A stretch of DNA of 64,000 nt from Singulisphaera sp. GP187 (lineage in GTDB: Bacteria > Planctomycetota > GCA-002687715): assembly GCA_945907755.1 (NCBI GenBank), contig CAMDTN010000005.1, positions 16,140 through 80,139 on the forward strand, in the 5' to 3' direction. Under the pieces are notes generated by a model, which was given only the letters and a program-made list of their open reading frames with translations, was not told the origin of the DNA and did no database searches. Every line of letters starts with the position of its first letter. The stretch's first letter is position 1. Shown here piece after piece: positions 47,664-48,620 of the stretch. The position numbers and the translations under genes were made by a program.

Positions 47664-48620
47664 ATGCGCTTGCTCTTCTTGTGCACCGGTAATTCGTGTC
47701 GCTCGCAAATGGCCGAGGGTTTCGCGCGAGCACTAGCCCCACCTGGGTTGGTAGTGGCTAGCGCCGGCACACACCCGAGCAGCGTGCACCCGCTGGCCGT
47801 GCAAGTGATGCACGAGGCCGGAGTGGACATCAGCGCGCAGCGCTCCAAAGGGCTCGATGCCGTGGCGCTCGCGGAGGCGGATGTGGTGGTGACCCTGTGC
47901 GGCGACGCCGATGAGCGCTGCCCGGTGCTGCCGCGCAAATGCCGGCGGCACCATTGGCCGATTTCGGATCCTGCACTTCTCAGCGGCGATGCGGCCACTG
48001 TGTTGCAGGGCTTCCGCTCCGTGCGTGACCAATTGGCGGCGCGTGTGCGCTTGCTGGTGTTCAGCCTCGGTGAAGGCGGCGCGCTGGTGAACTCCATCGA
48101 GCCCATTCACGACGCGGGGTTCATGAAGTTTCAGTGCGAAGAATTGGTGCTGCCCAACGGAGTGCATTGCTCTTTGAAAATTATCCGCCACCCCGGTGCC
48201 GCCTGCGTGGTGCCGCTGCTGCCAGATGGACAGGTGGTGCTCATTCGGCAATATCGCCACGCCGCGGGCGGCTACATCCTGGAAGCGCCAGCAGGCAAGC
48301 TGGATGGCGGAGAGACACCAGAGTCTTGTGCGCTGCGCGAGATCGAGGAAGAAGCGGGCCTCAGCGCGGGAAAACTGCATCGGCTGGGGCCGATTTTCAC
48401 GACGCCCGGATTCACCGACGAGGTGATCCACTTGTTTGCGGCCACGCAATTGCAGCGCGTGCCCGCGCGCCCCGAGCACGACGAGATCATCGAGACGGTG
48501 GAGATGCCGCTTGCAACCGCGCTCGAACTGGCGCGCAGTGGCGAAATCTGCGACGGAAAAACGCTGTGCGCACTGTGGCGGGTGGAGCAGGAGCTGCGCG
48601 CAGGCTCACTGCGTCCGTAG
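47664..48620 (+). CDS. Fusion protein: arsenate reductase (ArsC, LMW-PTPase family) fused to a NUDIX hydrolase
   Basis: N-terminal domain has the CTGNSCRSQMAEG P-loop and the Cys pair TLCGDADERCP (ArsC Cys82/Cys89 equivalents). C-terminal domain has the NUDIX box GKLDGGETPESCALREIEEEAGL. The ATG at 47664 is preferred over the GTG at 47655. Confidence 0.7.
   Translation: MRLLFLCTGNSCRSQMAEGFARALAPPGLVVASAGTHPSSVHPLAVQVMHEAGVDISAQRSKGLDAVALAEADVVVTLCGDADERCPVLPRKCRRHHWPISDPALLSGDAATVLQGFRSVRDQLAARVRLLVFSLGEGGALVNSIEPIHDAGFMKFQCEELVLPNGVHCSLKIIRHPGAACVVPLLPDGQVVLIRQYRHAAGGYILEAPAGKLDGGETPESCALREIEEEAGLSAGKLHRLGPIFTTPGFTDEVIHLFAATQLQRVPARPEHDEIIETVEMPLATALELARSGEICDGKTLCALWRVEQELRAGSLRP

Follow-up and report, generated by a model that had tools for sequence, protein, structure and literature searches.

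A single gene of the planctomycete Singulisphaera sp. GP187 joins an ArsC domain of the thioredoxin-type arsenate reductases to a Nudix domain of the ADP-ribose pyrophosphatase (ADPRase) or nucleoside diphosphate (NDP)-sugar pyrophosphatase class. The gene lies among phosphate-uptake genes on a 64,000-nucleotide stretch of contig CAMDTN010000005.1, which we refer to as the window and on which all positions are counted. Our preferred reading, to which we give a probability of roughly 0.55, is that the product is a genuine two-domain, bifunctional arsenate reductase and ADPRase, and that fusion would couple the expression and stoichiometry of two stress-protective activities. In agreement with a first-pass annotation made from the sequence, which had proposed a single open reading frame joining the two, Pfam places LMWPc at residues 4-130 (E 1.2e-21) and NUDIX at residues 176-289 (E 2.3e-18) of one continuous frame, 47664-48620. 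Coordinates of this and other features are collected in Table 1.

The N-terminal half closely resembles known ArsC enzymes in sequence, fold and active site. In a search of PDB sequences it matched Bacillus subtilis ArsC (1jl3) with E-values of 2.9e-31 to 2.5e-30 over residues 3-129, 127 residues aligned without a gap at 46% identity, and it also matched S. aureus pI258 ArsC. The same domain in an AlphaFold2 (AF2) model of the fusion superimposes on 1jl3 with a template modelling (TM) score of 0.91 and a root-mean-square deviation of 1.3 Å over 135 columns. Residues C7, C12, R13, C79, C86 and D102 align with C10, C15, R16, C82, C89 and D105 of the B. subtilis enzyme, and the P-loop is identical to that of the known enzymes (CTGNSCRSQMAEG). 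The first-pass annotation had claimed a complete thioredoxin-type catalytic set, to be given up if alignment showed no catalytic Cys and Arg; C7 and R13 are in place, and C79, C86 and D102 align as well. Among relatives with the same architecture (family 1, below), C7 and R13 occur in 13/13 sequences that have the N-terminus, C79 in 19/19, C86 in 17/19 and D102 in 19/19. The two distal cysteines are not needed for phosphatase chemistry, and their conservation therefore favours redox catalysis of the ArsC type over a simple phosphatase and over a module that only binds oxyanions. The best-scoring NCBIfam model for this half is TIGR02691. We considered two other assignments and rejected both: a low-molecular-weight (LMW) protein tyrosine/arginine phosphatase, because the ArsC match is at 1e-31 compared with 1e-5 to 1e-7 for the phosphatases, and a glutaredoxin-type ArsC as in Synechocystis, on scores (91.7 bits for TIGR02689) and on cysteine spacing.

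The C-terminal half is most similar to homodimeric Nudix ADPRases. Against PDB sequences it matched the B. methanolicus ADPRase/activator (8zr8/8wv3) with an E-value of about 5e-31, residues 146-307 aligning with chain residues 13-176, and further matches were Bdellovibrio Bd3179, T. thermophilus Ndx2/Ndx4 and M. tuberculosis Rv1700. A Foldseek search with the AF2 model gave 5c7t, 9jax, 1mqw and 2yvm as best matches. The N-terminal β-sheet subdomain of these enzymes is present, as indicated by the start of the 8zr8 alignment at chain residue 13 and by strands predicted at 141-150, 155-162 and 168-175 in the AF2 model. The Nudix box is canonical, as the first-pass annotation had it (residues 211-233), and its signature positions are invariant in our alignment A1. 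According to a criterion of Dunn (1999), in the form quoted in PMC4629899, a proline about 15 residues past the Nudix box predicts an ADPRase; P248 stands at this distance and aligns with the SPGG/TPGF proline of solved ADPRases, and the E. coli-type enzymes of a second fusion family (below) have an equal offset, from G261 to P277. An Asp-X-Lys motif, proposed as a marker of NDP-sugar hydrolases (PMC4629899), is found at D297-G-K299, and the Asp-X-Lys-based criterion of that paper accordingly places the Nudix half outside the ADPRases. The B. methanolicus ADPRase homologues of the 8zr8/8wv3 alignment also have it, so the rule is not absolute. Thus the window protein shares the swapped N-terminal sheet, the Nudix box and the diagnostic proline with the homodimeric ADPRases (8zr8/8wv3, the B. 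subtilis NudF type, Bd3179 in 5c7t, Rv1700 and Ndx2/Ndx4), and differs from them in its added N-terminal ArsC domain and in having both the ADPRase proline and D-X-K.

When scored against the NCBIfam equivalogs NudE, NudK, NudF and YffH/AdpP, the Nudix half missed all cutoffs (NudE 80.4 vs 169, NudK 62.3 vs 234, TIGR00052 52.1 vs 79.55). It is 58-67% identical to standalone enzymes. In species-representative genomes, the closest standalone Nudix among the matches listed comes from a Planctomycetota metagenome-assembled genome (MAG) and is 62% identical, and a scan of these genomes for full-length fusions gave standalone ADPRases only, again among the matches listed. The Nudix half appears to be an ordinary ADPRase or NDP-sugar hydrolase, the NudF-type house-cleaning enzyme of the lineage.

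Conservation across assemblies indicates that the two halves form one protein. A search of 5.8 billion proteins recovered the uninterrupted full-length LMWPc and NUDIX architecture in at least nine clusters at 58-100% identity (P0001-P0009, members of family 1), with source assemblies from ENA, Logan, JGI and NCBI. Pairwise Nei-Gojobori ratios of nonsynonymous to synonymous substitution (dN/dS), which are rough since dS is saturated, range from 0.12 to 0.39 in the ArsC half and from 0.05 to 0.37 in the Nudix half. Of the two, the ArsC half changes roughly twice as quickly, and the linker is the fastest segment of all (dN/dS 0.08-3.2). Met16, in a conserved 'MAEGF', was taken as the start by several gene callers (in P0001, P0009, P0282, P0286 and P0294); codons 1-15, ahead of it, are under purifying selection (dN/dS 0.08-0.39), and the DNA 5' of the called P0009 start codes for NILFLCTGNSCRSQ.

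The first-pass annotation had named a sequencing frameshift across two separate genes as an outcome that would undo it, and translation from a start other than the first ATG would similarly give a product with no P-loop. The Met16 calls, and an NCBI record of 165 residues that covers the Nudix part only (MSR75531.1), could be taken to point this way. However, many independent assemblies, and two unrelated families, have the frame unbroken, and purifying selection acts on both halves as well as on the codons before Met16. We therefore reject a frameshift or mis-assembly and give an artefact of any such kind practically no credence. A start at Met16 would strip the catalytic P-loop cysteine from the fusion protein, and the public names of these proteins are just 'ADP-ribose pyrophosphatase' or 'arsenate reductase'. 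Met16 starts and one-domain names thus hide ArsC-Nudix fusions, which is a problem for annotation.

In the AF2 model (mean predicted local distance difference test score, pLDDT, 83; predicted TM-score, pTM, 0.49) each domain is confident and their mutual orientation is not. The last ArsC helix, residues 110-135, passes through the short linker into strand 141-150, the first of the ADPRase N-terminal sheet.

Gene order around the fusion is shared by its relatives. In four family-1 clusters (P0002, P0004, P0005 and P0007) the fusion gene diverges from three porin genes, which are followed by genes for Peripla_BP_2, isochorismatase, 4HBT and LVIVD proteins. The porin-divergent arrangement is kept in loci L001-L005 and L088, and the more distant P0009 has a porin, Peripla_BP_2, isochorismatase and 4HBT nearby. 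The other flank varies: the window and P0002 have Pit-DUF47 there, and P0004, P0005 and P0007 have genes for a TPR-like protein, a kinase and a response regulator. One member of the P0002 cluster is labelled 'Planctomycetes bacterium' at NCBI. Judged by this conserved order, the fusion gene is a constant member of the phosphate-starvation gene neighbourhood of this Planctomycetota lineage.

The fusion is also rare, which bears out the earlier remark that its architecture is not a commonly described one. In an exhaustive phmmer search of 1.84 billion representatives, two of the best 150 matches were full-length LMWPc and NUDIX proteins: P0008, which belongs to the clade of the window, and P0140. 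Full-text searches, in which coverage of the literature is incomplete, found no paper on an ArsC-Nudix or a PhoR-ArsC fusion. Both domain families were already known; new here are the ArsC-Nudix architecture, its repeated, independent origin and its association with the Pho system. We also considered, and rejected, a widespread arsC-nudF operon as the source of the fusion, because no ArsC-like open reading frame was found in the flanks (up to ~10 kb per side) of 80 standalone ADPRase loci.

P0140 belongs to a second fusion family (family 2), Gammaproteobacteria-like and made up of at least 22 clusters (P0140 and P0280-P0301; loci L089-L094). The two families are alike in domain order, in an ArsC triad that is intact in most members (both redox cysteines are present in 22/23 family-2 sequences) and in occasional decay of the ArsC half. 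In contrast to the window fusion, family 2 has a Nudix half of the E. coli/Klebsiella NudF type (9dua, E 9e-56; 1g0s, E 2e-52), and its gene lies outside any Pho context, in the order tolC-nudF-yqiB(DUF1249)-cpdA/yqiA-parE-parC, the housekeeping position that is canonical in Gammaproteobacteria. Between the families, the Nudix halves share 33-35% identity, compared with 55-62% to standalone enzymes of the matching type; for the ArsC halves the figure is 53%, and either half has standalone relatives that are closer to it. A neighbour-joining tree of ArsC domains left monophyly of the family-1 N-terminal domains unresolved, as the domain is too short. Because the Nudix halves are far apart, with closer standalone kin of their own, and the loci differ, the same pair of domains must have been fused in the same order at least twice. 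This recurrence suggests that the handling of arsenate and the clearing of ADP-ribose are linked.

The ArsC module is tied to phosphate signalling in a further architecture. Relatives of the window's ArsC domain that lie nearest to it outside the fusion families include the C-terminal domains of PhoR-type kinases (P0147-P0149, 57-63% identity), and the kinase part of P0149 matches the PhoR of the window over its full length (35% identity, E 3e-75). All 120 matches listed for a P0149 query, P0399-P0517 among them, have the architecture sCache_like-HAMP-PAS-HisKA-HATPase_c-LMWPc, and such matches bear MAG labels from several phyla. The redox cysteines are kept in 118-119 of 122 PhoR-fused ArsC domains. 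These kinases thus resemble the window fusion in carrying an ArsC module with the same conserved triad and in their tie to the Pho system, and differ from it in their partner, the PhoR sensor kinase, and in the C-terminal position of the ArsC domain. The PhoR encoded in the window itself is without an ArsC-like LMWPc domain. By its nearest relatives, then, the ArsC half of the fusion falls in an ArsC subclade with repeated links to the Pho system.

Other multidomain relatives were also seen (the set comprised P0028, P0040, P0042, P0050, P0075, P0134, P0146 and P0237), including tandem ArsC-ArsC (P0028/P0040), ArsR-ArsC-ArsC (P0134) and triple ArsC (P0146) proteins, as well as a fusion of iPGM to a Nudix domain of the ADPRase type. 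The ArsR-ArsC and tandem fusions are similar to the window protein in that the ArsC module was recruited into a multidomain protein; however, what they join to it is arsenic-specific, either a regulator or more copies of the reductase, whereas the partner in the window is a nucleotide house-cleaning enzyme.

In a minority of lineages of both fusion families, the catalytic residues or the whole ArsC signature have been lost and the Nudix half is intact. The P0007 lineage has lost C86 and keeps C7, R13 and D102; the P-loop cysteine of P0299 is replaced by serine; and the ArsC half is decayed in P0030, P0037, P0135 and P0301, fully so in P0301. Three of these proteins (P0030, P0037 and P0135, at loci L095, L087 and L012) have an N-terminal extension of 95-145 residues without the CX5R loop and the cysteine pair, in which P0135 keeps a W-x-x-x-DP remnant and P0030 and P0037 keep the Trp column only. 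Profile-profile comparison of the extensions with ArsC gave weak matches (E 0.002-0.004, probability 8-16%). The P0030 locus retains the porin/Peripla_BP_2/isochorismatase/4HBT synteny, which identifies its gene as an ortholog with a decayed N-terminal domain, and the phmmer alignment of P0037 extends back to residue 71. On the basis of this synteny and this alignment, the three extensions are probably decayed ArsC pseudo-domains. Taken together, the slower evolution of the Nudix half, its persistence where ArsC decays and its housekeeping locus in family 2 suggest that it acts as the essential partner, to which the ArsC half would be an add-on.

The setting of phosphate and arsenate-analogue uptake genes (OprO/P porins, PitA, Pst) reported at first pass is present in full, with phoB, pstSCAB, phoU, phoR, DUF47-pit and three porin genes, and all genes of the Pho cluster lie on the strand opposite to the fusion gene. 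The same annotation had the fusion gene diverge from a porin promoter bearing a Pho box. The divergence holds and a Pho-box-like repeat is indeed there, but it is a lineage-specific one and not the E. coli consensus, for which no site was found in the window with up to 3 mismatches. The exact direct repeat CTTTA-N6-CTTTA occurs in three copies in the 64 kb, compared with 0.36 expected even with one mismatch. These minus-strand copies stand immediately ahead of the porin operon, the DUF47-pit operon and pstS, and nowhere else. At the pstS site, CTTTA(T/C) recurs twice more, spaced by 22 and 23 bp, and the whole array spans 59481-59543. The repeat fits the expected look of a PhoB-type site with 11-bp periodicity and is a candidate lineage-specific Pho box. 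The exact repeat was not found in the relatives L001-L005. A relaxed form occurs once in each of L002, L003 and L086, 101-129 bp upstream of the first porin gene, and was not found in L001 or L088. The divergent intergenic regions, when aligned, are too diverged to reveal a conserved promoter of the fusion gene, and a sigma-70 promoter scan found nothing. Pho control of the fusion gene itself is plausible.

By analogy with the mechanism of the B. subtilis and pI258 enzymes, arsenate would bind in the CX5R loop and come under attack by C7. C79 followed by C86 would resolve the adduct, leaving a C79-C86 disulfide for thioredoxin to reduce, and D102 would serve as general acid. The Nudix half would act on ADP-ribose or a related NDP-sugar and split it into a nucleoside monophosphate and a sugar phosphate. 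In the cell, the ArsC half would reduce the arsenate that enters with phosphate through porin, Pit and Pst when phosphate is scarce, and the ADPRase half would clear ADP-ribose, a reactive by-product of NAD breakdown. Such a pre-emptive reduction of arsenate is favoured by the gene's fixed position in the Pho cluster, by the nearby Pho-box-like sites and by the abundance of PhoR::ArsC fusions. The benefit of fusion would then lie in joint expression and stoichiometry and not in new chemistry. There is a precedent for this reading in trgB of Rhodobacter sphaeroides, an ADPRase that is associated with tellurite resistance, presumably through removal of protein-damaging ADP-ribose (Dunn 1999, as cited in PMC2628731 and PMC5389931). 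As cited there (PMC2628731), trgB resembles the window fusion in linking an ADPRase to a toxic metalloid oxyanion; it differs in being a separate gene that is not fused to a reductase, and its oxyanion is tellurite rather than arsenate.

The ArsC half differs from the pI258 and B. subtilis enzymes in its fusion to a Nudix domain and in being encoded in a Pho cluster, and not in an ars operon within the window. Several observations weigh against a bifunctional enzyme of this kind. The ArsC half scores 145.7 bits with TIGR02691, below the equivalog cutoff of 174.3, and no acr3/arsB, arsR, ArsA or thioredoxin gene was found among the scanned open reading frames of the 64 kb. The preferred substrates of the Nudix half may, to go by its D-X-K motif, be NDP-sugars other than ADP-ribose. 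To judge from the decayed sequences, ArsC activity is dispensable in some lineages (P0007, P0030, P0037, P0135 and P0301). The repeat in the divergent intergenic region faces the porin gene, which leaves Pho control of the fusion gene no more than plausible. Finally, two independent fusions suggest a coupling tighter than co-expression.

The main rival reading, and the most interesting one, is an ADPRase gated by arsenate or redox state, in which ArsC would mainly be a switch. Turnover of arsenate, or an oxidative environment, would form the C79-C86 disulfide and bring about the large movement of a loop that is known for ArsC, and this would tune the activity of the Nudix half (and, in the PhoR fusions, of the kinase). 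The rearrangement of the ArsC loop would be passed through the short linker to the dimer-forming β-sheet and so turn Nudix activity up or down. In line with this, two ADPRase subfamilies, and PhoR, have each independently acquired the same ArsC module, all three architectures keep the redox cysteines, and the linker of ~12 residues joins an N-terminal subdomain that contributes to the active site of the partner subunit (PMC4629899). However, the interdomain geometry is not confident in the AF2 model (pTM 0.49), the linker is the least constrained segment of the protein, and an intact Nudix domain in lineages with a decayed ArsC domain implies a Nudix activity independent of any switch. We thus hold gating to be unlikely. 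Somewhat less likely still is its broader form, in which the ArsC module would be a portable sensor-effector of arsenate, oxyanion or redox state, a disulfide switch that gates ADPRases (twice) and PhoR.

The two remaining readings give the domains a different chemistry. In a phosphate-scavenging tandem, the Nudix half would yield AMP and sugar phosphate from ADP-ribose or an NDP-sugar, and the LMWP domain, acting as a phosphatase and not as a reductase, would then free phosphate under starvation. This would suit the Pho-cluster context and an LMWP fold whose C7, R13 and D102 are phosphatase-competent, as well as the P0007 lineage, which keeps these three and has lost C86. Yet C79 and C86, which a phosphatase does not need, are ~90-97% conserved across the three architectures, the half matches ArsC at 1e-31 and phosphatases at 1e-5 to 1e-7, and family 2 lies outside the Pho context, and we consider the tandem improbable. 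The first-pass annotation had suggested that the Nudix moiety might hydrolyse arsenylated nucleotides or ADP-ribose-arsenate adducts; in its fuller form, ADP- or AMP-arsenate or such adducts would be split and the arsenate passed to the ArsC site. ArsC-ADPRase fusions are recurrent, and enzymes of the ADPRase class, as is generally known, take many ADP-X substrates (PMC4629899), both of which would agree with the suggestion. However, the Nudix half is not visibly diverged: it retains all signature positions, shows 58-67% identity with standalone enzymes and has changed at a slower pace than the ArsC half. Its place in family 2 is a housekeeping nudF locus, and it outlasts the decay of ArsC. 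Furthermore, arsenate anhydrides hydrolyse spontaneously and rapidly. The suggestion is therefore not supported, and we regard it as very improbable.

Table 1 Features of the fusion gene and its neighbourhood, in window coordinates.
Feature	Position	Strand	Remarks
ArsC-ADPRase fusion coding sequence	47664..48620	+	318 aa; ATG 47664, TAG 48618-48620; alternative in-frame GTG 47655
LMWP-fold thioredoxin-type ArsC domain	47664..48062	+	aa 1-133; Pfam LMWPc E 1.2e-21
P-loop C7-T-G-N-S-C-R13-S14	47682..47705	+	CX5R oxyanion-binding loop with nucleophilic Cys; aligns with B. subtilis ArsC C10...R16
Redox-relay segment C79 to C86	47898..47921	+	by alignment, ArsC C82/C89; seven residues apart
D102	47967..47969	+	ArsC general acid D105; 'DP' motif D102-P103
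Interdomain linker	48063..48098	+	aa 134-145, 12 residues; fastest-evolving segment
ADPRase/NDP-sugar pyrophosphatase domain	48099..48617	+	aa 146-318, including N-terminal β-sheet subdomain of domain-swapped dimer
Nudix box, G211 to L233	48294..48362	+	GKLDGGETPESCALREIEEEAGL; agrees with Gx5Ex7REUxEExGU
P248, ADPRase-predictive proline	48405..48407	+	L233+15 = G22N+16
D297-G-K299, Asp-X-Lys motif	48552..48560	+	on C-terminal helix, at G22N+65
Hairpin between convergent fusion and pit genes	48599..48637	.	perfect 18-bp stem, 3-nt loop, dG -43 kcal/mol, z -8.8
Three tandem Porin_O_P genes	43291..47468	-	46167-47468, 44810-46111, 43291-44676; divergent from fusion
Divergent porin/fusion intergenic region	47469..47663	.	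195 bp
Pho-box-like repeat CTTTATCTTGGCTTTA	47560..47575	-	begins 107 bp upstream of porin ATG; ends 89 bp upstream of fusion ATG
DUF47-pit operon	48640..50301	-	DUF47/PhoU_div 49684-50301, Pit (PHO4) 48640-49671; convergent with fusion
Second CTTTA-N6-CTTTA copy	50342..50357	-	ends 41 bp upstream of DUF47-pit ATG
TPR protein	50602-51264	-	Pho cluster
phoR	51301-53046	-	Pho cluster
phoU	53043-53777	-	Pho cluster
pstB	within open reading frame 53735-55045	-	Pho cluster
pstA	54565-56181	-	Pho cluster
pstC	56168-58420	-	Pho cluster
pstS	58442-59479 (start uncertain)	-	Pho cluster
Third CTTTA-N6-CTTTA copy	59528..59543	-	upstream of pstS
phoB	59554-60285	-	Pho cluster

The hairpin between the fusion and pit genes covers the last six codons of the fusion and its stop and is without a T-run. 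Matches to its arm with 0 mismatches in the window are its two arms themselves, and those with 2 mismatches lie at 2192 and 9806. It is probably a bidirectional terminator or a stabiliser; an Rfam scan of 44-52 kb gave no matches. Between the TPR gene and the promoter of DUF47-pit, the intergenic DNA (50357-50600) has 44-nucleotide direct repeats 107 bp apart with 93% identity, a 21-nucleotide exact repeat 55 bp apart and a 14-nucleotide inverted repeat. The PstA-like and PstC-like proteins (54565-58420) have 538 and 750 residues, with the BPD_transp_1 domain confined to the C-terminal part; PstA and PstC permeases usually have ~300 residues, so the window versions are much longer.

Past the porins lie an isochorismatase-family gene, a 4HBT thioesterase gene and a gene for an LVIVD/choice-of-anchor-B protein (40757-43253). 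This block also accompanies phosphate-porin genes in L001-L005, L086, L088 and L095, where the relatives add Peripla_BP_2, missing in the window. We dropped the possibility that the isochorismatase is a nicotinamidase, which would have linked it to NAD salvage, as its matches were weak and far below cutoff. Elsewhere in the window, a gene for a quinohemoprotein amine dehydrogenase α subunit (17744-19777) stands beside a radical-SAM maturase-like gene (16338-17774), and a 2-oxoacid dehydrogenase complex cluster (30964-38939) comprises E1α, E1β, E2, a second E1α and E3, with a lipoyl ligase/transferase gene (38112-38939) near it.

Independent recurrence in two phyla and with two ADPRase subfamilies is a classic Rosetta-stone signal of functional linkage, and the association of trgB with tellurite, as it is cited, is the only earlier hint, a tentative one, that ties ADP-ribose clean-up to metalloid oxyanion stress. 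If the ArsC module were indeed a portable switch, intracellular arsenate and phosphate status would be wired directly to Pho signalling and to NAD and ADP-ribose metabolism, which would bear on the long-standing question of the intracellular signal of PhoR. The presence of PhoR::ArsC in many uncultured lineages, together with the fusions described here, suggests that arsenate reduction is built into the phosphate-starvation response far more often than an annotation centred on ars operons implies. It also raises the question of whether organisms in phosphate-poor, arsenate-bearing habitats arm themselves against arsenate in advance through the Pho regulon.

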